Source of the DNA: Anaerolineae bacterium
GTDB lineage: Bacteria; Chloroflexota; Anaerolineae; UBA1429
Direction of reading: 5' to 3'
Length of the DNA: 64,000 nucleotides
Assembly (NCBI GenBank): GCA_040766725.1
Contig: JAXGPZ010000001.1
Location: forward strand, 3,231,086 to 3,295,085
The notes below the pieces were generated by a model. The model worked only from the letters and a program-made list of their open reading frames with translations, ran no database searches and had not been told where the DNA came from. This document shows, in pieces, positions 1,578-31,321 of the stretch (the stretch's first letter is position 1; each line of letters opens with the position of its first letter). A program made the translations under genes and the position numbers.

Positions 1578-2558
1578 ATGTCAGACCGGTTCAACTGGGG
1601 CATTCTGGGGCCCGGGCGTATTGCCCATCGCTTTGCCACCGACCTACAGCGCCTGCCCGACGCCCGTCTGCTGGCGGTGGGCTCGCGCGACGCTGGGCGC
1701 GCTGAGGCTTTTGCGCGCGAGTATGGCGCGCCACGCGCCTATGATAGCTATGCGGCCCTGGCATCCGATCCAGACGTGCAGGCCATCTATGTGGCCACCC
1801 CGCACCCTCTGCACCTCGACACGGCCCGGCTTTGCCTGCAGCAGGGCAAAGCGGTGCTCTGCGAAAAGCCACTCACGGCCAACCTGGCGCAGGCCGAGGC
1901 GCTGGCGGCCAGCGCCAGGCAGCACGGCGCCTTTTTGATGGAGGCCATGTGGACGCGCTTTAACCCCGTCATGGTGCAGGTGCGGGCCTGGCTGGCCGAG
2001 GGGCGCATCGGCGAGCCGCGCATCGTGACCGCCGACTTTGGCTTTGCTGCGGCGGTGAACCCCGAGGCGCGCCTGTTCAACCGGGCGTTGGCCGGCGGCG
2101 CCTTGCTCGACGTGGGCGTGTATGTGGTGTCGTTGGCGCACATGGTCTATGGCTCGGCGCCCACGCGCATCGAGGCCACAGCGGCCGTCGGCGAGACGGG
2201 CGTCGACGAGCAGACGGCGCTCTCGCTGGCTTTTGCCGGGGGCGGGCTGGCATCGCTCACCTGCGCCATTCGCACCAACACGCCGCACCTGGCGCGTATC
2301 GATGGCACCGCGGGGCGCATTACCATCCCTGCGTTCTGGCATGCCACTGAGGCTACTCTCGAGCCCCACGATGGCGAGCCCGTCACCGTGCACGGCGACG
2401 CCAGCTACCACTATGAGGCCGCCGAGGTGATGGCCTGTGTGCGAGCAGGGCGCCTCGAAAGCGCCAGCATGCCGCTGGACGAGTCGGTTGCCATCGCCGC
2501 GACGCTGGATGCGGCCCGGCGCGCCGTAGGCGTGCGCTATCCCTTTGATCCGAGGTAG
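1578..2558 (+). CDS. Gfo/Idh/MocA oxidoreductase (aldose/dihydrodiol dehydrogenase-like)
   Basis: WGILGPGRIA, YVATPHPLH, LCEKP, MEAMWTRF, GGALLDVGVY. Confidence 0.9.
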   Translation: MSDRFNWGILGPGRIAHRFATDLQRLPDARLLAVGSRDAGRAEAFAREYGAPRAYDSYAALASDPDVQAIYVATPHPLHLDTARLCLQQGKAVLCEKPLTANLAQAEALAASARQHGAFLMEAMWTRFNPVMVQVRAWLAEGRIGEPRIVTADFGFAAAVNPEARLFNRALAGGALLDVGVYVVSLAHMVYGSAPTRIEATAAVGETGVDEQTALSLAFAGGGLASLTCAIRTNTPHLARIDGTAGRITIPAFWHATEATLEPHDGEPVTVHGDASYHYEAAEVMACVRAGRLESASMPLDESVAIAATLDAARRAVGVRYPFDPR

Positions 2559-2562
2559 TGCC

Positions 2563-3546
2563 ATGAACAGTGTGATGCGATACGGCCAGGTGGCCGGCGT
2601 CAAGGTGCCCGTGGCGCGGCTGGTGCTGGGCACGATGATCGTCAACATCCAGGAGCGCGAGCGCAGCTTTGAGCTGTTGGACGCGGTCTTTGGCCTGGGC
2701 GGCAACGCCTTTGACACCGCCCACGTGTATGCAGGCGGCCAGAGCGAGCGTTGTCTGGGCGCCTGGATGCAGGCGCGCGGCAATCGCGAGCAGGTGTTCA
2801 TCCTCAGCAAGGGCTGCCATCACAACCAGGACCGCAAGCGCGTGACGCCCTTTGATCTGACCGCCGATCTGTATGACTCGCTGGCGCGCCTGCAGACCGA
2901 CTATATCGACCTCTACCTGCTCCACCGTGACGACCCGACGGTGCCGGTGGGCGTCATCATGGATGTGCTCAACGAGCACCATGCGGCGGGTCGCATTCGC
3001 GCCTTTGGCGGCTCGAACTGGACGCACGAGCGCATCGCTGCCGCCAACGAGTATGCAGCCGCACACGGCCTGGCGCCCATGGCGGCCAGCAGCCCCAACT
3101 ATGGCCTGGCCGAGCAGGTGCTCGACCCCTGGGGGCCGGGGTGCGTGTCGATCAGCGGCCCCGCCAATCAGGAGGCGCGCGCCTGGTATGAGGCCAACCA
3201 GATGCCGGTCTTCGCCTATTCGTCGTTGGGGCGCGGGCTCTTTTCGGGGCGCCTGTCGCGGCAGAACCTCGCTGAGGCCGAGCAGTTGCTCGATGGCGCC
3301 GCCCGCACCGCCTATCTGCACGAGATCAACCTGCAACGCCTCGATCGTGTTGCGCAGTTGGCGGCCGAACGGGGCTGCACCATTCCACAGATGGCCCTGG
3401 CGTATGTGCTGCACGCGCCGCTCAATGTCTTTCCGTTGGTGGGCGCGGCCAACGGCGCCGAGTTCGCCGAGAACCTGCGCGCACTGGAGATCGCCCTGAC
3501 GCCCGCAGAGTGCGCCTGGCTCGATCTCGAGCAGGACGAACGCTAG
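2563..3546 (+). CDS. Aldo/keto reductase
   Basis: FDTAHVY, SKG, SLARLQTDYIDLYLLHRDD; start moved to ATG 2563, just after the upstream stop. Confidence 0.9.
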   Translation: MNSVMRYGQVAGVKVPVARLVLGTMIVNIQERERSFELLDAVFGLGGNAFDTAHVYAGGQSERCLGAWMQARGNREQVFILSKGCHHNQDRKRVTPFDLTADLYDSLARLQTDYIDLYLLHRDDPTVPVGVIMDVLNEHHAAGRIRAFGGSNWTHERIAAANEYAAAHGLAPMAASSPNYGLAEQVLDPWGPGCVSISGPANQEARAWYEANQMPVFAYSSLGRGLFSGRLSRQNLAEAEQLLDGAARTAYLHEINLQRLDRVAQLAAERGCTIPQMALAYVLHAPLNVFPLVGAANGAEFAENLRALEIALTPAECAWLDLEQDER

Positions 3547-3647: not shown

Positions 3648-6137
3648 ATGACCCATCGCCTCGAACTGACGCCAGAGCAACTGACCCGGCGTACCGACCC
3701 TGCGTTGTTCGACTTTGCCTCTACGGCCGAGCTGGCGCCGCTGCGGCGCGTCATCGGCCAGGACCGTGCGGTCAGCGCCATCGAGTTTGGCGTCGAGATG
3801 CCGGGCGACGGCTACAACATCTTTGCGGTTGGGCCGGCCGGCTCGGGCCGCACCACGGCCGTGAGGCAGTTTCTGGATCAGCATGCCGCCAAGCGGCCCG
3901 CGCCGCCCGAGTGGTGCTATGTGTACAACTTTGAAGATGCCCGCGCGCCCAGAGCCATCAGCCTGCCGCCCGGGCGTGCCGTCGAGCTGCGCAACCAGAT
4001 GGCGCGTCTGGTCGAGCGCCTGCGTGAAGAGATCCCTCGCACCTTTGAGGGCCAGCCCTACGAAGATCGTCGGCGGCAGCTCTTGCTGCAGATGCAGCAG
4101 CGACAGCAGGCTCTGTATGAAGAGCTCGAGCGCTACCTCAACGAGCGCAACTTTGCGTTGATCCGCTCGCAGGCCGGCCTGGCCATCGCGCCGATGCTCA
4201 ACGGCGAGGTGCTCACCGCCGAAGCCTATCAAAAGCTGGATCCCGAGATCAAGAAAAAGTACGAATCGTTCCGGCCAGAGCTACAGGAGCAGTTCGACCG
4301 GGCCATGCGCGAGGCGCGCGATCTCGACCGCGAGGGCCGCAAGGCCATCGACAACATCAACGGCGAGATCGCCGGCTTTGTCGTGGACAACCTGATCGCC
4401 GAGATGCTCGAGGCCTTTGCCGATTGCGAAAAGGTGGTCGTCTTTCTGCGCGCCGTGCGCGACGACGTGGTGGCCAACGTCGATCGCTTCATGGGGCGCG
4501 ACGAGGAGCCCATGCCGCTGCCCATACCGGGCAGAGATGGTGGCGAGCGCTGGTTCCGACGCTATGAGGTCAACGTGCTCTCGAATGTGCCGACCTGCAA
4601 TTGCGCGCCGGTGACTGTCGAGGACAACCCCACCTATCACCGCCTGGTGGGCCGCATCGAGCACCGCACCGAGTTTGGCACGATGGTCACCGATTTCACC
4701 CAGATCCGCGCAGGCGCGCTGCACGCCGCCAACGGTGGCTATCTGGTGCTCGACGCGCGCCAGGTGCTCACCAACCAGCTTTCGTGGGAGGCGCTCAAGC
4801 GCGCCTTGCGCAACCACGAGATCAAGATCGAGGAGATGGCCCAGTTCTATGGGCTGGTGGCCGCGTCGACACTCGAGCCCGAGCCGATCCCGCTCGATGT
4901 CAAGGTGGTGCTGATCGGCGACCCCGCCCTGTACCAGCTCTTGGCCGCCTACGATGAGGACCTGCGCGAGCTGTTCAAGATCAAGGCCGAGTTCGTCACG
5001 CTGATCGACCGCGAAGAGGACCACCTGCGCGACTATGCCCAGTTCGCGGGCGATCTCTGCCGTCGCGAGGGGCTGCGTCACCTGGACCCCAGCGGCGTGG
5101 CCCGCCTGGTGGACGAGGCCTCACGCCTGGTTTCCGATCAGGGGCGCATGACGACGCGCTTTTCGGCCGTGGCCGACATCGTGCGCGAGGCCTCGTTCTG
5201 GGCCGGACGCGCAGAACGGGAGCTGATCACCGCCGAGGACATCGTGAGCGCGGTCGAGGCAGGCCGCAAGCGACTGGACTATCTGGCCGAGCGCTATCGC
5301 CAGAGCATCACCGACGGCACGGTGCTGATCGACACCGAGGGCGCAGTGGTGGGGCAGATCAACGGCCTCTCGGTGGCGCAGACGGCCGAGTTTGCCTTTG
5401 GCATGCCCTCGCGTGTCACCGCTCGCACCTTTTTGGGGCGGGCGGGCGTGGCCAGCATCGACCGCGAGGTCAAGATGACCGGCCCCATCCACGACAAGGG
5501 GCAGCTCATCCTTTCGTCCTATCTGGCCAGCCGCTTTGCGCAGCGCCACAGCCTGTCAGTGGCGGCCAGCCTCACGTTCGAGCAATCGTACGGCGGCATC
5601 GAGGGCGACAGCGCCTCTTCGACGGAGCTGTACGCGCTGCTGTCGAGCCTGGCCGAAGCGCCCATCAAGCAGAGCCTGGCCGTCACCGGCTCGGTGAACC
5701 AGTTCGGCCAGGTGCAGGCCATCGGCGGCGTCAACGCCAAGATCGAGGGCTTTTTCGATCTCTGTCAGGAGCGCGGGCTGACCGGCGACCAGGGCGTGCT
5801 CATCCCCGCATCCAACGTGCGGCACCTGATGCTGCGTGACGACGTCACCGCGGCGGTGCGCGAGGGCCGGTTCCACATCCATGCCGTCTCGACCATCGAG
5901 GAGGGCATCGAGCTGCTCACCGGCGTGCCGGCGGGCGAGGCTGACGAGAACGGCGACTATCCCGAGGGGACCATCTATCACCGGGTGCAGCGCAAGCTGG
6001 ACGCCTACCGGGAGGCGCTCAAGGCCGAGGCCAAGCCCAGGGGCAACGGCAACGGCGCCGGCACTGCGCCAGACGAATCTCCGGCCGACAGCGAGGTGCC
6101 CCCCAAAGAGCCATCGGTTGACGATCTCGCCAGCTAA
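3648..6137 (+). CDS. Lon-family protease (LonB/LonC-type AAA_32 plus Lon protease domain)
   Basis: GQDRA, GALHAANGGYLVL, catalytic Ser in GDSASS and Lys in AKIEGF. Confidence 0.9.
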   Translation: MTHRLELTPEQLTRRTDPALFDFASTAELAPLRRVIGQDRAVSAIEFGVEMPGDGYNIFAVGPAGSGRTTAVRQFLDQHAAKRPAPPEWCYVYNFEDARAPRAISLPPGRAVELRNQMARLVERLREEIPRTFEGQPYEDRRRQLLLQMQQRQQALYEELERYLNERNFALIRSQAGLAIAPMLNGEVLTAEAYQKLDPEIKKKYESFRPELQEQFDRAMREARDLDREGRKAIDNINGEIAGFVVDNLIAEMLEAFADCEKVVVFLRAVRDDVVANVDRFMGRDEEPMPLPIPGRDGGERWFRRYEVNVLSNVPTCNCAPVTVEDNPTYHRLVGRIEHRTEFGTMVTDFTQIRAGALHAANGGYLVLDARQVLTNQLSWEALKRALRNHEIKIEEMAQFYGLVAASTLEPEPIPLDVKVVLIGDPALYQLLAAYDEDLRELFKIKAEFVTLIDREEDHLRDYAQFAGDLCRREGLRHLDPSGVARLVDEASRLVSDQGRMTTRFSAVADIVREASFWAGRAERELITAEDIVSAVEAGRKRLDYLAERYRQSITDGTVLIDTEGAVVGQINGLSVAQTAEFAFGMPSRVTARTFLGRAGVASIDREVKMTGPIHDKGQLILSSYLASRFAQRHSLSVAASLTFEQSYGGIEGDSASSTELYALLSSLAEAPIKQSLAVTGSVNQFGQVQAIGGVNAKIEGFFDLCQERGLTGDQGVLIPASNVRHLMLRDDVTAAVREGRFHIHAVSTIEEGIELLTGVPAGEADENGDYPEGTIYHRVQRKLDAYREALKAEAKPRGNGNGAGTAPDESPADSEVPPKEPSVDDLAS

Positions 6138-6644: not shown

Positions 6645-6721
6645 GGGCAGGTAGCCCAGCTGGTTAGAGCGCCACGTTGACATCGTGGAGGCCGTAGGTT
6701 CGAGTCCTATCCTGCCCACCA
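6645..6721 (+). tRNA. tRNA-Val(GAC)
   Basis: GGGCAGG acceptor stem, anticodon arm CCACG-TTGACAT-CGTGG, GGTTCGAGTCC T-arm, encoded CCA. Confidence 0.97.
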
Positions 6722-6725
6722 GCGC

Positions 6726-6760
6726 ACAGCCCGTCGGTCAGCCGACGGGCTGTTTGTTTT
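6726..6760 (+). terminator. Rho-independent terminator after the tRNA, overlapping the kinase stop codon
   Basis: ACAGCCCGTCGG-tcag-CCGACGGGCTGT followed by TTGTTTT. Confidence 0.8.
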
Positions 6761-7769
6761 GCAGCCTGACCGCGATGCGGTCATGGTCTTCGTCCAGGCA
6801 GACGCCTGGGCTGGGCTGCGGCCTAAAGATGCGTTCGCTGCCGGCCTGTTCAAAGGCGCGCTCCAGCACCTCGGGCTCGGGGTGCAGGGCAATGATGGTG
6901 CCGCCGCCGCCGGCGCCGGCCAGCTTGGCCCCCAGCGCGCCGGCATCGAGCGCCGCCTTGATCAGCCGCTCATTCGATTCGCCCGAGCCGCCCAGGTCGC
7001 GCTGGATGACGTGGTTGCGGTTCATCAGCAGGCCGAGCCGCGGCCAGTCGCGGGCCAGCAGGGCCTTTTTCCCCTCTTGCGCCAGGCGCGCGATCTCCTC
7101 ATAGCCCTGACGCACCTCAGGGTCGCCCTCGAGCCAGCGTTCGCGCAGGGGCTTGTGCACCGCGTCTGACGAGTGTTGCACGCCGGTGTGGGCCAGCACC
7201 AGGGGCAGCTCGGTCACAAACGAGGTCAGTGGCTCGATGGTGGCATACAGCTCTTCGGCCGCATGGCGATAGAACTGCTTGTTGCGAAAGTCCATATAGT
7301 TGAGCCCGCCAAAGGTGCACATGTAGGCATCTTGATAGCCGCACACCACGCGAAAGTGGTTCAGCTCGATGTAGCGGGCCACTTCGGCCACGGTATAAAG
7401 GTGGGCCTGGTTGCCCTGATAGCGCATCAGCCCGAACACCAGCGCCACCAGCAGCGCCGTAGAGCTCGACACGCCCGAGGAGATGGGCACGTCCGAGGCG
7501 TAGGTGATGCGACAGGTCAGGGTATCGTGGCGGAGATACCCCAGCACAGCCCGCGCCACGTCGAACAGATCGTCCTGCAGGTCGAGGTCGTCCCGAGTCT
7601 CAAAGCGCCTGGTTTGGCCGGCGGTGACCACCTCGATGCCATCGCAGGGCTCGACAGTGACATGGGCGCGAAACGGAATGGTGCACGAGATGACCGACCC
7701 GCCGTACATGTCGGTGGGGTTGCCGATGATACCACAGCGGCCCGGCGCCGAGCAGTGAACGGTCTTCAT
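6738..7769 (-). CDS. GHMP kinase, glucuronokinase-like
   Basis: GNPTD N-terminal motif, P..SGVSSS, GYQD..FGGLNYMDF, VH..LRERWLEGD, GAKLAGAGGGG. Confidence 0.8.
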   Translation of the reverse strand: MKTVHCSAPGRCGIIGNPTDMYGGSVISCTIPFRAHVTVEPCDGIEVVTAGQTRRFETRDDLDLQDDLFDVARAVLGYLRHDTLTCRITYASDVPISSGVSSSTALLVALVFGLMRYQGNQAHLYTVAEVARYIELNHFRVVCGYQDAYMCTFGGLNYMDFRNKQFYRHAAEELYATIEPLTSFVTELPLVLAHTGVQHSSDAVHKPLRERWLEGDPEVRQGYEEIARLAQEGKKALLARDWPRLGLLMNRNHVIQRDLGGSGESNERLIKAALDAGALGAKLAGAGGGGTIIALHPEPEVLERAFEQAGSERIFRPQPSPGVCLDEDHDRIAVRLQNKQPVG

Positions 7770-7772
7770 GGG

Positions 7773-8678
7773 CTAGAGATCGCGCGCCTTGCGCTTGACG
7801 TATTGCCGCACCATGTAGCCGTACTTTTCGTCGGCCAGGGCAAAGTCGATGAACGCCTTAAAGTAGCTCTCAAAGTTGCCGATGTCATAGCGGCGCTCGT
7901 CCTGGCGCAGGCGCACGGCGCGCACGTGGTGGCCGAGCTGAATGAGCAAGCGGATCGAATCGGTGAGCTGCAGCTCGCCTTTGCGGTCGGGCGCGGTGCG
8001 GCTGATGGCGTCAAAGATCAGCGGGCTGAACACGTAGCGGGCGGCGATGGCCAGGTTGCTCGGCGCCGTGCCGGGCTGTGGCTTTTCGATCAGATCGTCG
8101 ACCGCAAAATCGTCGGCGTCGCCCTGCCCCTCGGCCGGCTTGACGATGCCATAGCGGTAGGCGTCGTCAGGATCGACCTCTTCGACGGCCACGGTGCAGG
8201 CAGCGCCGCTGGCCAGGTGCGCATCGATCATCTTGTGCAAAAAGCTGCCGCCGTTGCTGTTCTTGATGATGGAATCGCCCAGCGCCACCACGAAATGATC
8301 CTGCCCTACGAACTCGCGTCCATGGTAGACCGCGTCGGCGAGGCCGCGCGGCTCACTCTGCCGCGTATAGTAAAAGCGCGCCTCGGTCTCGGTGTAGGCC
8401 AGCTCTTCGAGCAGGGTATAGCCGCCGCCCGACGAGAGCAGGCGCACCAGCTCGGGGTCGGTGTCAAAGTGATCCTCGATGGCCGTCTTTTTGCGGCCGG
8501 TGACAAAGAGGATCTGGTTGACCCCCGCCGCCTCCATCTCTTCGACGACGTATTGCACCACCGGGCGCCGCCCCACAGGCAGCATCTCTTTGGGCTGCGA
8601 CTTGGTGGCGGGCAGCAGGCGCGTGCCCATGCCGGCCACCGGCACCACGACCTTGTTGATCGTCTCGACCCGAGTCAT
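7773..8678 (-). CDS. UTP-sugar-1-phosphate uridylyltransferase (GalU-like)
   Basis: PVAGMGTRLLPATKSQPKEMLP, RQSEPRGLADAV, LIEKP, ELQLTDSI, RYDIG. Confidence 0.88.
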   Translation of the reverse strand: MTRVETINKVVVPVAGMGTRLLPATKSQPKEMLPVGRRPVVQYVVEEMEAAGVNQILFVTGRKKTAIEDHFDTDPELVRLLSSGGGYTLLEELAYTETEARFYYTRQSEPRGLADAVYHGREFVGQDHFVVALGDSIIKNSNGGSFLHKMIDAHLASGAACTVAVEEVDPDDAYRYGIVKPAEGQGDADDFAVDDLIEKPQPGTAPSNLAIAARYVFSPLIFDAISRTAPDRKGELQLTDSIRLLIQLGHHVRAVRLRQDERRYDIGNFESYFKAFIDFALADEKYGYMVRQYVKRKARDL

Positions 8679-9515
8679 CTAGCCCTCCCTCTGCGCCTCT
8701 TGCGCGCCGACCTGATGGAGCACATCGCGAAAAGCCCTCGTGGCCACCTCGAACAGCTCGGGCCCCGAGAACCCGCTAAAGGTGCCTGCGCTGGATAGGT
8801 GCGGCTCGAGCGACGCAAAGCCATCATAGCCGCGAGCGGCCAGCGCCGCAATCAGCTCGGGCAACTGACCATCGCCCTGGCCGGCCGGCACCACGCGCTG
8901 TTCGGCCAGCAGACCGTCTTTGATGTGCAGATAGTCGGTGTAGTCGGCCAGCAGCGCATAGCCTTCATCAAAGGGCCTGACGCCGCACATCACGAAATTG
9001 GCCGGATCAAAGGTAAAGCGCAGTTGCGGCGAGTCAAAGTGGGTCAGCAGGTCATGGCAGCGCCGGGGGATATCGCCATAGATGTGGCGCTCGTTTTCGT
9101 GCAGCAGCGTGACGGCGTGGCCAGAGGCGGCCTTCAAAAGCTGCTCCATGCGGCGCAACACGTCGCTACGACGTCGGTCGGCCTCGCCCTCGGCCACAAA
9201 GAAGGAAAAGAGACGGATGTACGGGCTCTGCAGATACTCGGCCACGTGCAGCGCCTGCTCAAAGGCCGCCAGATGGGGCTCCATGGGGGCGTCGATGTCG
9301 ATCTTGCCGATCGGCGAGCCGATGGCCGAAACGCCGATGCCAGCGGCCTGCAGCCCCTGGCCGACGCGCGCCAGCTCGTCGTCATCCAGCTGCAACACGT
9401 TCTTGCCCCACACGCCGCGCAGCTCCAGGTAGCGAATGCCGAGCCTGCCCAACACCTCGAGCTGCACTTCGAGCTGTGCATCGATCTCATCTGCAAAGCC
9501 GCTCAGTGTGAACAT
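8679..9515 (-). CDS. Sugar phosphate isomerase/epimerase (xylose isomerase-like TIM barrel)
   Basis: SGFADEI, IRLFSFF, HENE, FDPANF, LHIKD, SLEPHL. Confidence 0.85.
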   Translation of the reverse strand: MFTLSGFADEIDAQLEVQLEVLGRLGIRYLELRGVWGKNVLQLDDDELARVGQGLQAAGIGVSAIGSPIGKIDIDAPMEPHLAAFEQALHVAEYLQSPYIRLFSFFVAEGEADRRRSDVLRRMEQLLKAASGHAVTLLHENERHIYGDIPRRCHDLLTHFDSPQLRFTFDPANFVMCGVRPFDEGYALLADYTDYLHIKDGLLAEQRVVPAGQGDGQLPELIAALAARGYDGFASLEPHLSSAGTFSGFSGPELFEVATRAFRDVLHQVGAQEAQREG

Positions 9516-9611: not shown

Positions 9612-9818
9612 CTAGGACTCTTTATCGGCGTCCTCTTTGGCCTCGTCGACGGCCTGCTTGACCTCTTCGGTGGCGTCTTCAGCCGTCTTGGTGGCCTGGC
9701 GGAACTCGCGGATGCCCTTGCCCAACGCGCCACCAAGCTCTGGCAGCTTGCCCACGCCAAAGATGATGATCACGATGACAAGGATGATGACGAGTTCCCA
9801 GATCCCGGGCTTCATCAT
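9612..9818 (-). CDS. tatA: Twin-arginine translocase TatA/TatE subunit
   Basis: [36 protein letters not shown]. Confidence 0.92.
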
Positions 9819-9875: not shown

Positions 9876-10067
9876 CTATGCGTCTGGCGATTCCTTCTTG
9901 TCATCCTTCTTTTCGTCGACGATGCCCTCTTGAGAGGCCTTGCGAAAGCCGGCAACAGCCTTGCCCACGGCGCCGCCCACGGTACTCAACTTGCCAGCGC
10001 CAAAGATCGCCAGCACGATGACCAGAATGATGACCAGTTCCCACACGCCAGGAAGCTTTGGAATCAT
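9876..10067 (-). CDS. tatA: TatA/TatE paralogue
   Basis: [37 protein letters not shown]. Confidence 0.88.
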   Translation of the reverse strand: MIPKLPGVWELVIILVIVLAIFGAGKLSTVGGAVGKAVAGFRKASQEGIVDEKKDDKKESPDA

Positions 10068-10143
10068 CTAACCCCTCCTTGGTGCTCCGATTTCATTGTA
10101 CCAGGCTGCAGGTCACCGTCAAATCAGACCGGCTCCCTTACGT

Positions 10144-11905: not shown

Positions 11906-12697
11906 TCAGCGCAGGTTGGGGCCATCGACAGCCAGCGGCCCCAGAGCCAGCAACGCCGCGTGGATGCGCCCATTGCTCACCAGCCAGTCGGGCGTGTCGA
12001 GCGTGGTGGGTTGGCCGCTCATGTCGGTGGCCGTTGCGCCCGCCTCGGCCAGGATCAGCGAGGCGGCGGCCGTATCCCACGACTTGAGCGTGTACTGATA
12101 GTAAGCGTCGGCCCAGCCCGCGGCCACATAGCACATGGCCAGAGCGGCGCTGCCGACACTGCGCGGCACAAAGATCTGTGGAGTGAGCCTGCCGAAAAAG
12201 CGGATGCCTTGCTCGCGCCAGGCCGAGTCGCGGGGCCAGTCCATCAACACAATGCAGTCGTCCAGACTGTCGCGCACGCTGACGCCGATGGGCGCGCCAT
12301 TGAGCCGCGCCCCCTGGCCGCGCACTGCCGTGAACAGCTCCTCGCTCACCGGGTCATAGATGACGCCACACACGACCTGCCCGGCCACAGCAGCGGCCAC
12401 CGACACGCACCAGCCACCCAGCCCGCGGGCATAGTTGGTGGTGCCGTCGAGAGGGTCGATGTACCACACCGGCTGTGTGGCGCTCTGCAGCGCCGCCTGG
12501 TTGCTCTCTTCAGAGACGAACAGGCTCTTGGGGCAGCCGCGGCGTATACAGCCGATGGATAGCGCCTCGGCCTCGAGATCGGCTTCGGTGGTGATGTCGC
12601 GGGCTCCCTTGACGATGACATCGTGGGGTTGACGATAGCGTGACAACAGGGCGCGGCCCGCCTCATGGGCCGCCTGGATGGCCAGGTCGAGGTACAT
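11906..12697 (-). CDS. Inositol monophosphatase family (SuhB-like)
   Basis: TEAD, VSEE, WYIDPLDGTTNY, GSAALAMCYVAAG, WDTAAA. Confidence 0.9.
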   Translation of the reverse strand: MYLDLAIQAAHEAGRALLSRYRQPHDVIVKGARDITTEADLEAEALSIGCIRRGCPKSLFVSEESNQAALQSATQPVWYIDPLDGTTNYARGLGGWCVSVAAAVAGQVVCGVIYDPVSEELFTAVRGQGARLNGAPIGVSVRDSLDDCIVLMDWPRDSAWREQGIRFFGRLTPQIFVPRSVGSAALAMCYVAAGWADAYYQYTLKSWDTAAASLILAEAGATATDMSGQPTTLDTPDWLVSNGRIHAALLALGPLAVDGPNLR

Positions 12698-12713
12698 GTT
12701 CCCTTCCAAACGG

Positions 12714-13823
12714 TTATTTGATGCCCGTACGGGCGATGCCTTCGATGAACTGCTCTTGCACAAACAGGAACAGCACGATCACCGGCACGATGGTGAACGA
12801 CGCTGCGGCCATGTACAGGTTGAACTGGGTGCCCGCCTCGGTGGAAAAGGACGCCAGGCCGAGCGCCAGGGGGCGCATCGTTTCTTCGTCGGTGACCAGC
12901 AGCGGCCAGAGCAACGAGTTCCAGGCGCTCAAAAAGTTGAACATGCCGGTGCTCACCAGCGCGGGCTGGGCCAGCGGCAGCGCGATGGACAGCAGAAAGC
13001 GAGTGTGTCCGCAGCCGTCGATGGTGGCGGCATCAAAGAGGTCGTCGGGGACACTCTTGAAGAACTGCCGCAGGAAAAAGATCGACAACACACTGACGGC
13101 GTAGGGCACCACCAGGGCGGCAAAGGTGTTCTTCCAACCCAACTGGCTGACGGTGATAAAGTTGGGGATGAGCACCACCTCAGAGGGCACCATCATCGTC
13201 GCCAGGAAGAGCATAAAGAGCAGGTTGGCCCCGGGAAAGCGCATCCGCGCAAAGGCATAGGCAGCGGGCGCCGAGGTGACCACGATCAGCAGCGGCGTGG
13301 CCACGCTCATAATGATCGAGTTGCGGAAATAGTAGGCGAATGGCGCGCGATCCCACGCCTCGACATAGTTGTCCCAGAAGGGCTTGAGCTGTGCGCCACG
13401 CTCGCCCACAGCGGCCTGCCAGGCAGCGGCCAGGCTTCGATCCCCCCAAAAGTCGAGCAGCCCCACCGCAAGGAACAGAGCGATATGGATCAGCAGGTAG
13501 AGGGCGCGCCAACGGCCATCACGGATGAGGCGCACGACCCAGATGCCCAGCGCCAGCCAGGCTGCGAATGCGATCATCCATATCGGACGCGACCAGAGCA
13601 TCGCGCCCAGTATGCCCAGGCGCACGCCCCACTCGGCCGGGAAGATGGTCGGCGGTGTGGCGATGGCCTCGGCATACGTCTTGAACGAGGTGAGGATCAT
13701 CCACACAAAGGGAAAGCAGGTCACCACGCCGCCGAGGCCCAGAAAGGCGTAGAGCAATCCGCGGTTGAGCTGTCGCCTGGCGTGCGGATCGAGCAGCATG
13801 GTGCGACGCGCTGATACTGCCAT
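12714..13823 (-). CDS. Carbohydrate ABC transporter permease (MalG/UgpE-like) with an N-terminal TM insert
   Basis: EAA loop DLFDAATIDGC, WNSLLWPL. Confidence 0.88.
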   Translation of the reverse strand: MAVSARRTMLLDPHARRQLNRGLLYAFLGLGGVVTCFPFVWMILTSFKTYAEAIATPPTIFPAEWGVRLGILGAMLWSRPIWMIAFAAWLALGIWVVRLIRDGRWRALYLLIHIALFLAVGLLDFWGDRSLAAAWQAAVGERGAQLKPFWDNYVEAWDRAPFAYYFRNSIIMSVATPLLIVVTSAPAAYAFARMRFPGANLLFMLFLATMMVPSEVVLIPNFITVSQLGWKNTFAALVVPYAVSVLSIFFLRQFFKSVPDDLFDAATIDGCGHTRFLLSIALPLAQPALVSTGMFNFLSAWNSLLWPLLVTDEETMRPLALGLASFSTEAGTQFNLYMAAASFTIVPVIVLFLFVQEQFIEGIARTGIK

Positions 13824-27152: not shown

Positions 27153-28022
27153 ATGGCATTGCCTCTGCGCGAAGCGCGTGTGGCCATCGTGGGCCTCGGC
27201 CTGATGGGCGGATCACTGGCCGCCGCCCTGAAGGCGGCTCGGGCCTGTCGCGAGGTGATCGGCATTGCGCGCCGGCCCAACAGCATCACGATGGCCCTGA
27301 CCTTTGGGTTCATCGACCGCGGCGCCCTCGACCTGGCCGAGGGGGTGGCCGACGCTGACGTCGTCGTGCTGTGCACGCCGGTGGGCGACATCCTGGACAA
27401 GATCGCCACCATCGGCCCGCTGCTCAAGCCGGGCTGCGTGCTGCTCGACATCGGCAGCACCAAGGCGGCCATCTGTGAGGCGATGGCCGCCATGCCGGCC
27501 CATGTGCAACCGCTGGGCGGGCACCCCATGTGCGGCAAAGAGTCCTCGGGCCTGAACGTGGCCGAGGCGGGCCTCTACCGCGGGCGTGTCTTTGTGCTCA
27601 TCCCCTTGGAGCGCACCTCGCCTGAAGCGCAACGGCTCGCAGGCGAGTTGATCGCCGCCATCGGCGCCCGCGAGCTGCGGCTCGACGCCGCACACCATGA
27701 TCGGGTGGTAGCGTTGATCTCACACCTGCCCTATATGCTCTCAGTGACGCTGGTCAACGCCGCCGCCCGCCTGGCGGGCGATGATGCCACGCCCTGGCGG
27801 CTGGCAGCCAACGGCTTTCGCGACACCAGCCGAGTGGCGGCTGGCGACCTGGCGATGATGATGGACATCATGACCACGAACCGCGCGCCGATTCTGGCGG
27901 CCGTGCGCGGCGCCCAGCAAGAGCTGGACGAGCTCGAAAAACTGCTGGCCACCGGCGACGACGACGCCCTGCAGGCGCATCTGCGCACGGCCCGTCAGCG
28001 CCGTAGAGAGGTGTTCCCATGA
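27153..28022 (+). CDS. tyrA: Prephenate/arogenate dehydrogenase (no ACT domain)
   Basis: GLGLMGGSLA, DIGSTK, GHPMCGKE, HDRVVALISHLP, GFRDTSRVA. Confidence 0.92.
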   Translation: MALPLREARVAIVGLGLMGGSLAAALKAARACREVIGIARRPNSITMALTFGFIDRGALDLAEGVADADVVVLCTPVGDILDKIATIGPLLKPGCVLLDIGSTKAAICEAMAAMPAHVQPLGGHPMCGKESSGLNVAEAGLYRGRVFVLIPLERTSPEAQRLAGELIAAIGARELRLDAAHHDRVVALISHLPYMLSVTLVNAAARLAGDDATPWRLAANGFRDTSRVAAGDLAMMMDIMTTNRAPILAAVRGAQQELDELEKLLATGDDDALQAHLRTARQRRREVFP

Positions 28023-29317
28023 ACCTGACCGTCACACCGCGTGGGCCGTTGCGCGGCGAGGCTCGCGTGCCCGGGGACAAGTCGATCACTCACCGCGCAC
28101 TGCTGCTCGCCGCTCTGGGCGATGGGCCCGCACGGGTGCGCAACCATCTGGATGGCGGCGACTGTCGCGCCACCATCGGCTGCCTGCGGGGCCTGGGGGT
28201 CGCCATCGACGACACTACTCCGGGCGAGCTGCAGGTCGAGGGCGTGGGCCTGCGCGGGCTGGTCGAGCCGGCCGGCGTGCTCGATTGTGTGCGCTCGGGC
28301 ACGGCCATGCGACTGCTGGCCGGCCTCCTGGCGGGCCAGCCTCTGTTCACGGTGCTCTCAGGCGATGATCAACTGCTGCGACGGCCCATGGGCCGCGTGG
28401 TGCAGCCGCTGACGGCCATGGGCGCACACGTCTGGGGCCGCGACGGCAACCGCTATGCACCGCTGGCCATCCAGGGCGCCACACTGCAGGGCGCCACCCA
28501 CCATCTGGCGGTGGCCAGCGCCCAGGTCAAGTCGGCCATTCTGCTGGCCGGTCTCTATGCCCAGGGAGAGACGGCGGTCGTCGAGCCGGGCCCCTCGCGC
28601 GACCACACCGAGCGCATGTTGCGTGGCCGCGGCGTGGCTCTGGCCAGCGAGGGCCTCACGCACCGTGTGCAGGGGCCGGTCGAGGCGCTGGGCAGCCTCG
28701 ACGTCGACGTGCCCGGCGACCTTTCCTCGGCCGCGTTCCTGATCGGCGCAGCACTGCTGACGCCCGGCTCGCGGCTGGTGCTGCGCGATGTCAACCTTAA
28801 CCCCACCCGCACCGGCCTGCTCGACGCCATCGCACTGATGGGCGGTCAAGTCGCGGTGCTCGACGAGCGCGACGCTGCCGGCGAGCCGCTGGGCGACCTG
28901 GCCATCGAGGCGCAACCACTGCACGGGGCCACCATCGGCGGGGCGCTGGTGCCGCGCATGATCGACGAGTTCCCCCTGCTGGCGCTGTTGGCCTCGCAGG
29001 CACAGGGCGTCACCACCGTGACCGATGCCGCCGACCTGCACGTCAAAGAGACCGACCGCATCGTCACCACGGTGGCGGCCCTGCGCGGCCTGGGCGCCCA
29101 CATCGAGCCCACTGCCGACGGCTTTGTGATCGAGGGCCCCACGCCGCTCACGGGCGCGGCCATCGACAGCTTCGGCGACCATCGCCTGGCGATGACGCTG
29201 GCCGTGGCCGGGCTCATCGCGCGCGGCGAAACGGCCATCGGGCGCGCCGAGTGCATGGGCGATTCCTTTCCCGGGTTCGCGCCGCTGCTGCTATCGCTCT
29301 GCGGGGGGGCGGCATGA
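28019..29317 (+). CDS. aroA: EPSP synthase
   Basis: PGDKSITHRA, LLRRPMGRV, SAQVKSA, SRDHTERM, KETDRI, DHRLAM. Confidence 0.96.
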   Translation: MNLTVTPRGPLRGEARVPGDKSITHRALLLAALGDGPARVRNHLDGGDCRATIGCLRGLGVAIDDTTPGELQVEGVGLRGLVEPAGVLDCVRSGTAMRLLAGLLAGQPLFTVLSGDDQLLRRPMGRVVQPLTAMGAHVWGRDGNRYAPLAIQGATLQGATHHLAVASAQVKSAILLAGLYAQGETAVVEPGPSRDHTERMLRGRGVALASEGLTHRVQGPVEALGSLDVDVPGDLSSAAFLIGAALLTPGSRLVLRDVNLNPTRTGLLDAIALMGGQVAVLDERDAAGEPLGDLAIEAQPLHGATIGGALVPRMIDEFPLLALLASQAQGVTTVTDAADLHVKETDRIVTTVAALRGLGAHIEPTADGFVIEGPTPLTGAAIDSFGDHRLAMTLAVAGLIARGETAIGRAECMGDSFPGFAPLLLSLCGGAA

Positions 29318-30198
29318 TGCCCACCCTGGACTATGCCGTGCCCATCGACGGCCACACGCGACTGGTGGGCCTCTTTGGCTGGCCGGTGGAACACAGCGTA
29401 TCGCCGCCCATGCACAACGCCGCTTTTCGAGTGCTGGGCCTGCCCTGGTGCTATGTGCCCTTTGCGGTGCACCCCGACGACCTCGCCGCGGCTCTGGCCG
29501 GCGCGCGCGCCCTGGGGCTGCGTGGCATCAACGCCACCGTGCCTCACAAGCAGGCGCTCTTGCCCCTGATGGACGCACTGACGCCCGCCGCCCGCGCCAT
29601 TCAGGCGGTCAACACGGTGCTGTTCGAGCCGGGCCGCACGCGGGGCCACAACACCGACGCCGAGGGCTTTGCGCGCGCGCTGCGCGACGAGGGACTCGCT
29701 CTGCAGGGCGCCCACGCGCTGGTGCTGGGCGCCGGCGGCGCCGCGCGGGCAGTATGCTACGCCCTGGCAACGGCCGGCGCCCGGGTGACGGTGCTCAACC
29801 GCACGCCCGAGCGCGCCACGTCTCTGGCGGCCACGATCAGCGCCGAGGTGGACGGCGCCCAGCTTTCGGGCGGCCCCCTCAACGCTGACGCCCTGCGCGC
29901 CAGCCCTGCGCCTGACCTGGTGGTGAACGCCACCAATGTGGGCATGTGGCCGCGAGTCGACGCCTCGCCGTGGCCCGACGGCGTGCCCTTTCCGCGGCAA
30001 GCGCTGGCCTATGATCTGATCTACAACCCCCGCGAGACGCGCTGGATGGCGACCGCGCGCGCGGCCGGCGCGCGCGCCGCCAATGGGTTGCGCATGTTGG
30101 TGCACCAGGGCGCGGCTTCGTTTACCGTGTGGACCGGCATCGAGCCGCCCACCGACGTCATGCTCGCCGCCTGCCTGCAGGCGCTGGGAGGAGGCTGA
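29314..30198 (+). CDS. aroE: Shikimate dehydrogenase
   Basis: HSVSPPMHN, NATVPHKQ, AVNT, NTDAEGF, GAGGAAR, DLIYNP. Confidence 0.94.
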   Translation: MMPTLDYAVPIDGHTRLVGLFGWPVEHSVSPPMHNAAFRVLGLPWCYVPFAVHPDDLAAALAGARALGLRGINATVPHKQALLPLMDALTPAARAIQAVNTVLFEPGRTRGHNTDAEGFARALRDEGLALQGAHALVLGAGGAARAVCYALATAGARVTVLNRTPERATSLAATISAEVDGAQLSGGPLNADALRASPAPDLVVNATNVGMWPRVDASPWPDGVPFPRQALAYDLIYNPRETRWMATARAAGARAANGLRMLVHQGAASFTVWTGIEPPTDVMLAACLQALGGG

Positions 30199-30199
30199 T

Positions 30200-31321
30200 A
30201 TGCTGCGATTCATCACTGCGGGCGAGTCTCACGGCCCCGGGCTGGTGGCGCTGCTGGAGGGCATTCCGGCGGGGCTGCCGCTGAGCGCCGACGACCTGCT
30301 GCCGATGCTGGCCCGCCGCCAGCAAGGCTATGGCCGCGGCCAACGCCAGCAGATCGAGCAGGACCATGCCGAGATCATCGCTGGCGTGGTGGATGGCCGC
30401 ACCATCGGCTCGCCGCTGGCGCTGCTGGTGCCCAACCGCGACTATGCCAACTGGCGCGACCGCAAGACGCCGCCCTGGCGTCGCCCCAGGCCGGGCCATG
30501 CCGACCTGGCCGGCGCCATCAAGTACGGCCTCGACGACCTGCGGCTGGTGGCCGAGCGCGCCAGCGCCCGCGAGACGGCCGCGCGCGTCGCGGCGGGGGC
30601 CGTGGCCGTGAGGCTGTTGGCGCAGGTCGGCGTGCAGGTGGGCAGCTATGTGCGCGCCATCGGCCCAGTGCGAGCCGACGTAGAGACGCTGCCGGTGCCC
30701 CAGCGAGTGGAGCGAGCGCGGGCCTCTAACGTGGCCTGCCCCGACGAGGCCGCCGCTGAGCGCATGCGCGCCGCCATCGATGCGGCGCAGGCCGCTGGCG
30801 ATTCGCTGGGCGGCCTGTTCGATGTGGTGGCCTGGGGCTTGCCGGTGGGGCTGGGCAGCTACGTGCAGTGGGATCGACGCCTCGACGCCCGTCTGGCGGC
30901 CGCGGTGATGAGCATTCAGGCGGTCAAGGGCGTCGAGATCGGCCCGGCCTTTGCCAACGCCCGCCTGCCCGGCACCGCCGTGCACGACGCCCTCTATCCG
31001 GGCGACGCCGGCCTGCAGCGCCGCACCAACCGCGCCGGAGGCCTCGAGGGCGGCATGACCAACGGCGAGCCGCTGATCCTCACCGCGGCGATAAAGCCCA
31101 TCCCCACCACGTTGACGCCGCAACCAACCGTCGACCTGGACACCGGTCAGCCGGTGCACACCGAGTACCAGCGCTCTGACGGTTGCGCCGTGCCAGCCGC
31201 GGCCGTCGTGGGCGAGGCGATGGTGGCGTTGACGTTGGCCGAGGCGATCATCGAGCGCTATGGCGGCGACAGCCTGGCCGCACTGCAGCACCGCATGGGG
31301 GGCGCCCATGTCCACCCCTAG
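30200..31321 (+). CDS. aroC: Chorismate synthase
   Basis: TAGESHG, RQQGYGRG, PRPGHAD, ERASARETAARVA, GGLEGGMTNG, KPIPT. Confidence 0.96.
   Translation: MLRFITAGESHGPGLVALLEGIPAGLPLSADDLLPMLARRQQGYGRGQRQQIEQDHAEIIAGVVDGRTIGSPLALLVPNRDYANWRDRKTPPWRRPRPGHADLAGAIKYGLDDLRLVAERASARETAARVAAGAVAVRLLAQVGVQVGSYVRAIGPVRADVETLPVPQRVERARASNVACPDEAAAERMRAAIDAAQAAGDSLGGLFDVVAWGLPVGLGSYVQWDRRLDARLAAAVMSIQAVKGVEIGPAFANARLPGTAVHDALYPGDAGLQRRTNRAGGLEGGMTNGEPLILTAAIKPIPTTLTPQPTVDLDTGQPVHTEYQRSDGCAVPAAAVVGEAMVALTLAEAIIERYGGDSLAALQHRMGGAHVHP

Follow-up and report, generated by a model that had tools for sequence, protein, structure and literature searches.

The textbook bacterial route to UDP-glucuronate (UDP-GlcA) is the oxidation of UDP-glucose by the dehydrogenase Ugd. 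To our knowledge, only plants and some lower animals have an established salvage route through a kinase and a pyrophosphorylase. Two sugar kinases of the GHMP superfamily, HddA and the glucuronokinases (GlcAK), act on sugars bearing a distal anionic group. In Arabidopsis, the GHMP anomeric kinase GlcAK1 (At3g01640, EC 2.7.1.43) is followed by a UDP-sugar pyrophosphorylase (USP), without Ugd (PMC2823444); this USP is a eukaryotic enzyme of 600 aa, and the glucuronate is supplied by MIOX. In zebrafish GKUP, which serves UDP-GlcA salvage, a glucuronokinase is joined to a putative uridyl pyrophosphorylase in one protein; the study reported pyrophosphorylase activity that was barely detectable (PMC3938481). 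In the HddA/GmhB/HddC pathway to GDP-D-glycero-alpha-D-manno-heptose, an anomeric kinase is likewise followed by a nucleotidyltransferase, in this case a GTP-using enzyme of the HddC type, and a phosphatase is required. Bacterial GlcAK homologues were first noted in 2010 as occurring in 'a few bacteria' (PMC2823444), and any suggestion from the original prediction for this locus that bacteria lack the route is thus too strong. In our literature search, no bacterial glucuronokinase or UDP-GlcA pyrophosphorylase of the type described below turned up with an enzyme assay.

We analyzed a stretch of 64,000 nucleotides (hereafter the window) from an uncultured Chloroflexota bacterium, in which three tightly packed genes look co-transcribed. 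The features of the locus are the following.

6738..7769, minus strand: putative GHMP-superfamily anomeric sugar kinase (P0001, 343 aa), with GHMP_kinases_N and GHMP_kinases_C domains
7773..8678, minus strand: predicted GalU-derived UTP:sugar-1-phosphate uridylyltransferase of a 'kinase-linked' subfamily (P0002, 301 aa), PF00483
8679..9515, minus strand: xylose-isomerase-like (AP_endonuc_2) TIM-barrel metalloenzyme (P0003, 278 aa), PF01261
9876-10067 and 9612-9818, minus strand: two tatA-like genes, preceding the TIM-barrel gene
10095..10122, minus strand: sigma-70-like promoter match (10/12), upstream of the two tatA-like genes
6726..6753, plus strand: hairpin with a 12-bp stem followed by a T-run, overlapping the kinase stop codon

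The stop codon of the TIM-barrel gene abuts the transferase ATG (0-nt gap) and the kinase ATG lies 3 nt past the transferase stop; the arrangement first described for these three minus-strand genes is borne out by the ORF coordinates. A tRNA-Val gene (6645-6721), convergent to the kinase gene, lies just before the hairpin, which is probably the end of both transcription units, while the promoter match possibly marks the start of the unit that carries the module. The same order (tatA-tatA-TIM barrel-transferase-kinase) is found in a relative. In the 64-kb window, we found no second copy of the kinase, transferase or TIM-barrel gene, and neither uxaC nor uxaE. An IMPase-family gene is present at 11906-12763.

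With slightly better than even confidence, we read the module as a bacterial salvage system made of a hexuronate 1-kinase and a UDP-uronate pyrophosphorylase. The assignment draws on gene order, conservation, family placements and signatures, all of which are directly observed; the substrate, phosphorylation at the anomeric position, the use of UTP and the part played by the TIM barrel are inferred from them. The substrate of the GHMP kinase would be a free acidic hexose, most likely D-glucuronate but possibly D-galacturonate, and the phosphate would go onto its anomeric C1 hydroxyl. The GalU-derived transferase would then join the sugar-1-phosphate to UTP, giving a UDP-uronate with UDP-glucose dehydrogenase bypassed. 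The TIM-barrel enzyme, translationally coupled upstream in the window's clade, may isomerize or epimerize a related sugar acid for the kinase; in another Chloroflexota clade, uxaC-uxaE take its position and would feed the kinase instead. The scheme follows that of Arabidopsis, but the partner in the window is a GalU-type enzyme of 300 aa encoded in the same operon, and the source of glucuronate is not MIOX. Kinase and transferase are separate genes, in contrast to zebrafish GKUP. The N-terminal domains of eukaryotic GKUP proteins were also considered as counterparts of P0002 and rejected: they are not GalU-like, with a best E-value to P0002 of about 1e-7.

The kinase belongs to the GHMP superfamily. 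It has the N- and C-terminal domains (PF00288, 47 bits; PF08544, 52.8 bits; PF10509, 28.5 bits), and motif II (P.GSG..SS), motif III (G.GGGG) and the catalytic Asp can be read in the alignment as VPISSGVSSSTA, AGAGGGGT and GYQD. The four motifs that had suggested a 'plant-type glucuronokinase' are all present (GNPTD, GYQDAYMCTFGGLNYMDF, VHKPLRERWLEGD and LAQEGKKALLARDWPRLGLLMNRN) and align with the corresponding stretches of Arabidopsis GlcAK1, for which the query used is 99% identical to database sequence P0125. One of them, G.QD...FGG..YM[DE]F, is equally present in HddA (PDB 4n3o, 3k85) and hence is not GlcAK-specific, FGG.NYM[DE]F being common to the kinase family and HddA; by contrast, GNP[ST]D and H..R.RW..G[DE] are common to the kinase and GlcAK only in our alignment of the compared GHMP families. 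The third GlcAK signature, a deletion in motif III (GS--GGA), is absent from the kinase, which has the canonical AGAGGGG. Also absent is the 6-residue insertion that follows motif I in HddA, where GGG[ST]D stands in place of GNPTD. The kinase is collinear with AtGlcAK1 over its full length (29% identity, 106 bits) and 26-31% identical to GlcAK family members. Among the latter, for which the best 150 of the 484 cluster representatives at E<=1e-30 were taken, identity to AtGlcAK is 38-78%. What holds of the 'plant-type' label is thus a relationship to GlcAK, not membership of that family. No GlcAK structure was found in the PDB, and the IMG product name of the window's kinase family reads only 'galactokinase/mevalonate kinase-like'.

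No NCBIfam equivalog cut-off is reached by the kinase. It scores 80 bits against the HddA model NF049969 (cut-off 600), at most 78 bits against galactokinase (GalK) models (cut-offs 226-509), and 111 and 105 bits against mevalonate kinase (MVK) models (cut-offs 403 and 163). As to diagnostic residues, GalK was judged by GEHTDY and MVK by the Lys of PGK...GEHAV; the kinase retains the PGR..G Arg and the GYQD Asp that mark sugar anomeric kinases, not the MVK Lys. Raw BLAST scores are of no help here, the P0001 family being about equally close to MVK and GlcAK (median 94 versus 95 bits). Seen from the GlcAK side, the P0001 family comes first among the outgroups by a wide margin, with a median of 89 bits versus 44 for HddA, 34 for MVK and 24 for GalK. 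In a tree with thin outgroups (a single MVK sequence and two each of HddA and GalK, all reconstructed from PDB alignments), the kinase family groups with GlcAK and HddA at 99/96, away from MVK, and is split from GalK at 100/99, while the GlcAK clade (100/100) leaves out the P0001 family. E. coli GalK and GalU and S. enterica RmlA served as reference sequences; the GalK sequence matched PDB galactokinases at the level of the family (290 bits to human GALK1). The kinase was rejected as a mevalonate kinase because of the Arg in place of the catalytic Lys, the scores below cut-off, the tree split and the constant linkage to a transferase. The GHMP phylogeny suggested with the original prediction sets the kinase apart from GalK but does not order it against GlcAK and HddA: without constraint, HddA falls with GlcAK (83/75), and AU tests reject neither the P0001 family with GlcAK (p 0.36) nor the P0001 family with HddA (p 0.19). 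As judged from these sequence comparisons, the kinase is a separate, slowly evolving GHMP lineage at sister level to GlcAK and HddA and outside the GlcAK family.

The closeness to HddA raises another possibility, that of a C1 kinase acting on a sugar phosphate, followed by a separate phosphatase that takes off the distal phosphate and by the formation of an NDP-sugar, as happens in GDP-heptose synthesis, with the TIM barrel as a ketose-phosphate to aldose-phosphate isomerase. Besides the AU value for HddA as sister group and the shared FGG.NYM[DE]F, such a route could account for the HAD phosphatase gene that follows the kinase in Latescibacterota, for a 335-aa HAD gene near the pair in about 10 Chloroflexota loci and for the IMPase-family gene of the window. 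We nevertheless consider it very unlikely: the conserved core has no phosphatase; the Latescibacterota protein is a HAD-IA enzyme and not the GmhB equivalog (34 bits versus a cut-off of 178); the partner is of the GalU type (UTP), not of the HddC type (28 bits); and motif I, the missing insertion and the NF049969 score all separate the kinase itself from HddA.

The transferase P0002 shares 41-45% identity with solved GalUs. Its alignment with 8f73, YngB, 5i1f and E. coli GalU shows the catalytic and uridine-binding residues of GalU in place: G.GTR, K, Q, the Mg-binding Asp and the EK of VEKP. The fold and the G.GTR..P.TK stretch are likewise those of GalU (TIGR01099; PDB 8f73, 7o2n, 5i1f). Yet P0002 scores 275 bits against TIGR01099, below the cut-off of 326.8 and outside the GalU equivalog, as do seven other kinase-linked transferases (262-287 bits), whereas the characterized enzymes pass it (YngB, 409 bits; Burkholderia GalU, 385 bits). 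P0002 also has a 2-residue insertion relative to GalU, and the subfamily is marked by LGD[S/T] and RYD[IV]GNF.S (RRYD[IV]GNFESYF in the P0002 family). Canonical GalU has Asp or Val directly after the Mg-binding Asp; at this position, Ser or Thr stands in 72/72 and 65/66 kinase-linked transferases. In PaUGP (D131) and YngB (D134), the Asp found there is reported to coordinate the glucose moiety (PMC11796359; bioRxiv 10.1101/2020.11.30.405621). P0002 may be described as a GalU-derived sugar-1-phosphate uridylyltransferase that is predicted to use UTP.

A simpler view would be that the transferase is housekeeping GalU, with the kinase feeding the same pool (in a Leloir-like manner or as a glucose or galactose 1-kinase) or acting independently. 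Canonical GalU nests in the transferase tree as sister of the GlcAK-type enzymes, so that the subfamily could simply be the GalU of these phyla; the residues shared with GalU and the lack of a second galU in the 64-kb window would agree with this. Against it stand the TIGR01099 scores of all eight kinase-linked transferases checked, the replaced sugar-pocket Asp, the specificity of canonical UGPases for Glc-1-P reported in the literature (PMC12203929), and a near-obligate linkage to two kinase lineages across at least six bacterial phyla, including one fusion protein. We hold housekeeping GalU to be quite unlikely.

This linkage appears in a survey of 80 loci with kinase orthologues (57-93% identical), spanning Chloroflexota classes, Latescibacterota and Terriglobia. 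The transferase gene lies directly upstream of the kinase gene in 78 of them, a recurrence that argues against a chance arrangement. Genes of the true bacterial GlcAK family, named 'glucuronokinase' in IMG and encoding proteins 40-46% identical to AtGlcAK, have a transferase of the same subfamily directly upstream in 67/80 loci (median 52% identity to P0002). These modules occur in Planctomycetota, Verrucomicrobiota, Acidobacteriota and Chloroflexota. Their two genes are ordered as in the window's pair, the LGD[S/T] and GNF.S signatures recur, and in one protein (P0390) a transferase of the kinase-linked type is fused to a true GlcAK-family kinase. Their kinase lineage differs from that of the window (26-31% identity). 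The three-gene operon of the original prediction hence reduces to a conserved core of two genes, as the TIM barrel is present in only 27-29 of the 80 loci.

In one Chloroflexota clade, the genes upstream of the pair point to hexuronates. Products of uxaC and uxaE interconvert galacturonate, tagaturonate, fructuronate and glucuronate. In related Chloroflexota loci (Anaerolineae, Ardenticatenia, Chloroflexia), these genes lie directly upstream of the pair (uxaC in 18, uxaE in 23), mostly with gaps of at most 60 nt, and a gene for an SDR and one for a LarA 'hexonate epimerase'-like protein lie downstream. Their identity is supported by NF002794 for the glucuronate isomerase UxaC (529 bits, cut-off 387) and by PF16257 for the tagaturonate epimerase UxaE (495 bits). 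Thermotoga has enzymes of the same families, which feed catabolism via mannonate and KDG (Rodionova et al. 2012, cited by PMC7583248); in the Chloroflexota loci they are operonic with the kinase-transferase pair, and in the window an unrelated TIM barrel takes their place. That either set occupies the same upstream position suggests that the upstream enzymes probably feed the kinase. The uxaC-uxaE linkage is limited to one Chloroflexota clade and absent from the window's clade, and may therefore partly reflect inherited gene order.

Substrates other than a hexuronate must be weighed here. The pair could be an anomeric kinase and UDP-sugar pyrophosphorylase for another acidic or rare sugar, or for a neutral one such as xylose, arabinose or galactose, with the uronate genes as mere neighbors. 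The kinase family stands apart from GlcAK; about 29 loci lacking both TIM barrel and uxaE have heterogeneous, unrelated and uninformative neighbors; in Latescibacterota, the pair lies between kdsA and the HAD phosphatase gene, an envelope-sugar context; and promiscuous bacterial GalK/uridyltransferase pairs that salvage xylose exist (PMC11267548). We still regard a non-hexuronate sugar as unlikely, given the transferase subfamily and pocket signature common to true GlcAK modules, the two GlcAK-only kinase motifs and the tight coupling of uxaC-uxaE in 18-23 loci. The same three lines of evidence favor uronate activation as first proposed, even with a kinase outside the GlcAK family, and we predict a hexuronate as its substrate, D-glucuronate being the likeliest.

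The TIM-barrel enzyme is a xylose-isomerase-like protein by domain (PF01261, 79 bits), by its (beta/alpha)8 fold and by its Glu-Asp-His-Glu metal ligands (E140, D170, H197 and E237, invariant across 28 orthologues). With an AF2 model of pLDDT 93.5, the best Foldseek matches were Art22 isomerase, 3tva, UlaE, a DTE-like protein and IolI (TM 0.73-0.78, at most 19% identity), a generic fold that assigns no specific subfamily; a PDB sequence search returned 3tva alone (E 2e-4). It was also compared with UxaE (PF16257) as a possible miniature form, which was rejected (hhalign probability 0.2%). Its proposed identity as a uronate epimerase is thus not supported: the fold is generic, the gene is restricted to the window's clade and there is no similarity to the UxaE profile.

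Taken jointly, these observations allow a wider reading, which we offer tentatively and regard as doubtful as a whole. A single dedicated, GalU-derived subfamily of 'UDP-uronate pyrophosphorylase', widespread in at least six bacterial phyla, would be served by two kinase lineages that look unrelated, true GlcAK and P0001, and in Chloroflexota the module would be connected to enzymes that remodel free sugar acids. Where uxaC-uxaE are present, galacturonate from pectin would be converted to UDP-glucuronate in four steps, with enzymes of the Ashwell pathway put to anabolic use. A new xylose-isomerase-like enzyme would act instead in the window's clade; its sugar-acid isomerase or epimerase activity would be one not described so far, and the product might be a UDP-sugar acid different from UDP-GlcA.

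If the salvage reading is correct, hundreds of mostly uncultured bacterial species would have a Ugd-independent and NAD-independent route to UDP-glucuronate. It would draw on either of two kinases and on a compact pyrophosphorylase (300 aa) dedicated to UDP-uronates. Small bacterial enzymes would become available for the one-pot synthesis of UDP-GlcA, at present dependent on the Arabidopsis kinase and USP (PMC6604206). Genome-based reconstruction of nucleotide-sugar metabolism would change for Chloroflexota, Planctomycetota, Verrucomicrobiota and Acidobacteriota, and the orphan TIM-barrel and LarA-like neighbors would acquire a testable substrate class.

On the reverse strand of the window, the TIM-barrel, transferase and kinase genes follow one another as originally predicted. 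ORF calls and domain searches bear out the tight junctions: the ATG of the transferase gene abuts the stop codon of the TIM-barrel gene, and the kinase ATG lies 3 nt past the transferase stop. The locus comprises the following features.

6645-6721, forward strand: tRNA-Val(GAC), downstream of the kinase gene and convergent with it
6726-6753: strong hairpin, 12-bp stem with a T-run, overlapping the kinase stop codon
6738-7769, reverse strand: GHMP kinase P0001, 343 aa (GHMP_kinases_N and GHMP_kinases_C domains)
7773-8678, reverse strand: nucleotidyltransferase P0002, 301 aa (PF00483; top NCBIfam model GalU TIGR01099, 275 bits, cut-off 326.8)
8679-9515, reverse strand: xylose-isomerase-like TIM barrel P0003, 278 aa (PF01261)
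9612-9818 and 9876-10067, reverse strand: tandem pair of tatA/tatE-like genes, 68 and 63 aa, between a DUF3048 gene and the TIM-barrel gene
10122-10095, reverse strand: promoter-like match upstream of the tatA-like genes

Since the hairpin overlaps the kinase stop codon and the tRNA gene is convergent, a single terminator may serve both directions. The order tatA-tatA-TIM barrel-transferase-kinase is also found in locus L081, whose kinase is 70% identical to P0001. Downstream of the operon and oriented toward it, with other features between 6138 and 6737, lies a gene for an 829-aa LonC/LonB-like AAA+ protease homologue (3648-6137, forward strand; AAA_32, LonC_helical and Lon_C domains). A sugar-redox pair without conserved linkage to the operon, a Gfo/Idh/MocA oxidoreductase gene and an aldo/keto reductase gene overlapping by 14 nt, is present 3 kb away (1578-3546, forward strand). 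The G+C content of the window is about 66%, with 72% at 28001-32000 vs about 66% in the rest.

The kinase had been proposed to resemble plant glucuronokinase (GlcAK), and all four motifs put forward for this are found in it when it is compared with the real Arabidopsis GlcAK1 sequence. The AtGlcAK1 query is 99% identical to the database entry it retrieved, P0125 ('putative glucuronokinase [Arabidopsis thaliana]'); P0001 aligns with the query over its full length (29% identity, 106 bits). None of the NCBIfam equivalog models recognizes the kinase: scores are 111 and 105 bits with the mevalonate kinase (MVK) models, 80 with HddA and at most 78 with GalK, all far under the respective cut-offs. 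At E<=1e-30, an exhaustive HMMER search with AtGlcAK in 1.84 billion cluster representatives yielded 484 proteins; identity to AtGlcAK is 38-78% among the best 150. Many matches are fusions of about 600 aa with an N-terminal transferase domain, the GKUP architecture (PMC3938481). P0001 is 26-31% identical to proteins of this set (100-129 bits), and IMG names the bacterial members 'glucuronokinase' but the relatives of P0001 only 'galactokinase/mevalonate kinase-like predicted kinase'.

The kinase tree (IQ-TREE, LG+C20) had 57 rows: 17 from the P0001 family, 35 from the GlcAK family, and MVK, HddA and human GalK, rebuilt from PDB alignments, together with E. coli GalK. From the GalK outgroup (100/99), MVK branches next, followed by a clade of the P0001 family, HddA and GlcAK (99/96). 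Support within this clade is 86/84 for monophyly of the P0001 family but only 83/75 for HddA plus GlcAK, the latter with a long-branch warning, and AU tests reject neither a P0001 family-GlcAK grouping (p 0.36) nor a P0001 family-HddA grouping (p 0.19). In like-for-like BLAST comparisons, GlcAK has the P0001 family as its closest outgroup (median 89 bits; HddA 44, MVK 34, GalK 24), and so do HddA and MVK. This ranking shows the P0001 family to be slow-evolving and 'central' in position.

The motif comparison adds qualitative characters. GNP[ST]D (motif I) and H..R.RW..G[DE] are common to the P0001 family and GlcAK only, G.QD.Y...FGG.NYM[DE]F to the P0001 family and HddA. The P0001 family has neither GlcAK's two-residue deletion in motif III nor HddA's six-residue insertion after motif I, and at MVK's Lys position it carries Arg (PGR), as sugar anomeric kinases do. 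Membership of the GlcAK family is thus rejected by identity (26-31% vs 38-78% within the best 150) and tree; the tree places the kinase away from GalK and in a shared clade with GlcAK and HddA. On tree, BLAST and motif comparison together, the kinase belongs to a third, uncharacterised lineage next to GlcAK and HddA, two enzymes that each phosphorylate C1 of sugars with a distal anionic group. The motif shared with HddA would suit an HddA-like route through a bisphosphate; the kinase has GNPTD in place of HddA's GGG[ST]D and lacks the HddA insertion, and we consider such a route improbable, the least probable of the alternatives weighed here.

When one genome per species was scanned, 236 relatives emerged, of which the best 80 were analyzed. 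Their kinases are 57-93% identical to P0001 and all come from MAGs (Anaerolineae, Caldilineae, Chloroflexia, Ardenticatenia, Latescibacterota and one Terriglobia). An orthologue of P0002 (55-95% identical) ends directly before the kinase start in 78 of the 80 loci, whereas the TIM barrel occurs only in the window's own clade, the 27-29 loci in which kinase identity to P0001 is about 65% or higher. The core is therefore a two-gene transferase-kinase module; of the three-gene operon initially envisaged, the pair is conserved and the TIM barrel is confined to one clade.

All ORFs in the 80 loci were then sorted into clusters, whose representatives we scanned. In the clade with kinases of about 60% identity to P0001, the slot upstream of the transferase is occupied by uxaE (tagaturonate epimerase; PF16257, 495 bits, 23 loci), preceded by uxaC (glucuronate isomerase; NF002794, 529 bits vs a cut-off of 387, 18 loci). 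The spacing from uxaE to the transferase gene is in most cases no more than 60 nt, and the loci span three Chloroflexota classes. Together, UxaC and UxaE are known to interconvert galacturonate, tagaturonate, fructuronate and glucuronate (Rodionova et al. 2012, cited in PMC7583248). Their linkage is independent context evidence for uronates. In 22 loci an SDR gene comes immediately after the kinase. Furthermore, 12 loci (L037, L041, L043, L045, L047, L049, L050, L054, L056, L065, L070 and L077) contain a LarA homologue beside uxaC-uxaE-transferase-kinase operons, some 2-6 kb past the kinase gene (at a greater distance in L077) and often accompanied by an SDR and a 335-aa HAD, the latter found near the module in about 10 loci. 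The closest model for the LarA homologue (178 bits vs a cut-off of 500) is NF052594, LarA 'group 18 putative hexonate epimerase', nickel-dependent (PMC7583248).

The other 29 loci have heterogeneous neighbors. Latescibacterota (L038:1992-7020, L064:2055-7162) show the order pyrG - kdsA - transferase - kinase - HAD-IA phosphatase, with kdsA (KDO-8-P synthase) recognized at equivalog level (NF003543, 395 bits); the phosphatase of these two loci is not GmhB. Here the pair lies in an envelope-sugar context, unlike in Chloroflexota. A sugar other than a hexuronate would fit such a setting; with uxaC-uxaE beside the pair in three Chloroflexota classes, we hold it to be unlikely, though the least unlikely of the alternatives.

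The TIM barrel modeled with AF2 from a 28-sequence alignment (pLDDT 93.5) has as its best Foldseek matches Art22 isomerase, 3tva, SCO6571, a D-tagatose-3-epimerase-like protein, UlaE and IolI, all at TM 0.73-0.78 and at most 19% identity. Glu-Asp-His-Glu metal ligands are invariant across the alignment, and profile comparison of the window's barrel with UxaE gave no similarity (probability 0.2%). The model points to a barrel of the keto-sugar isomerase/epimerase type. Translational coupling to the transferase, and a slot held elsewhere by uxaC-uxaE, hint that it might prepare the kinase substrate.

P0002 resembles solved GalU enzymes (41-45% identity), with catalytic and uridine-binding residues kept. 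However, in 72 family members the Mg-binding Asp is followed by Ser (67; Ser135 in P0002) or Thr (5), where the four GalUs aligned from PDB entries (8f73, YngB 7o2n, Burkholderia 5i1f and 5vct) and, as reported, PaUGP have Asp, and the enteric enzymes Val. That Asp reportedly coordinates the glucose moiety (PaUGP D131, YngB D134; PMC11796359, bioRxiv 10.1101/2020.11.30.405621), and the canonical UGPases assayed are Glc-1-P-specific (PMC12203929). The P0002 family further differs from GalU by a two-residue insertion followed by RRYD[IV]GNFESYF. TIGR01099 gives 262-287 bits for all eight kinase-linked transferases tested, YngB scoring 409 and Burkholderia GalU 385. When a tree of 46 rows is rooted on RmlA, the GlcAK-type transferases (98/94) have canonical GalU (100/100) as their sister group, and those of the P0001-type are paraphyletic, so the kinase-linked transferases are a set defined by signatures and linkage, not a clean clade. 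They may double as GalU in these organisms. That P0002 is a housekeeping GalU beside an unrelated kinase would agree with its conserved residues; the altered residue and the linkage in 78 of 80 loci speak for a dedicated partner, and we give this alternative little credence.

The comparison with true bacterial GlcAK modules is the decisive one for the transferase. A second genome scan gave at least 568 matches, the best 80 of which, from MAGs of Planctomycetota, Verrucomicrobiota, Acidobacteriota, Balneolota, Chloroflexota and others, were examined. In 67 of these loci the kinase is directly preceded by a transferase that shares 45-61% identity with P0002 (median 52%), and 9 of the other 13 loci are truncated at the contig start. 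LGDS (63) or LGDT (2) occurs in these transferases, as does the GNF.S motif of the P0002 family. Furthermore, P0390, a 626-aa protein on a 2.2-kb JGI metagenome contig, fuses a GalU-like transferase to a true GlcAK-family kinase; its N-domain is 40% identical to P0002 and scores a median 187 bits to the P0002 family vs 120-134 to canonical GalU. It is a prokaryote-style counterpart of eukaryotic GKUP, but with a different transferase domain. A true GlcAK-type module on the ENA metagenome contig L085 has two divergent AP_endonuc_2 TIM-barrel genes (L085:946-1746 and L085:7291-8166) on its flanks, along with two Gfo/Idh/MocA genes; TIM barrels may thus accompany both module types.

Judged from sequence, the conserved pair would very probably be an anomeric sugar kinase with a UDP-sugar pyrophosphorylase. 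We lean somewhat toward a hexuronate as the sugar; glucuronate is favored over galacturonate, as the transferase subfamily serves true GlcAK-family kinases too and two kinase motifs are shared with GlcAK only.

GlcAK homologues in bacteria have been on record since 2010 (PMC2823444), and lower-animal fusions of kinase and transferase since 2014 (PMC3938481). In the literature searched, we found no assay of a bacterial GlcAK-type member or P0001-type kinase, nor an account of this second lineage of kinases, of the transferase subfamily dedicated to them or of their linkage to uxaC-uxaE. True bacterial GlcAK-family genes, seemingly uncharacterised so far, are themselves common and almost always follow a GalU-like transferase gene.
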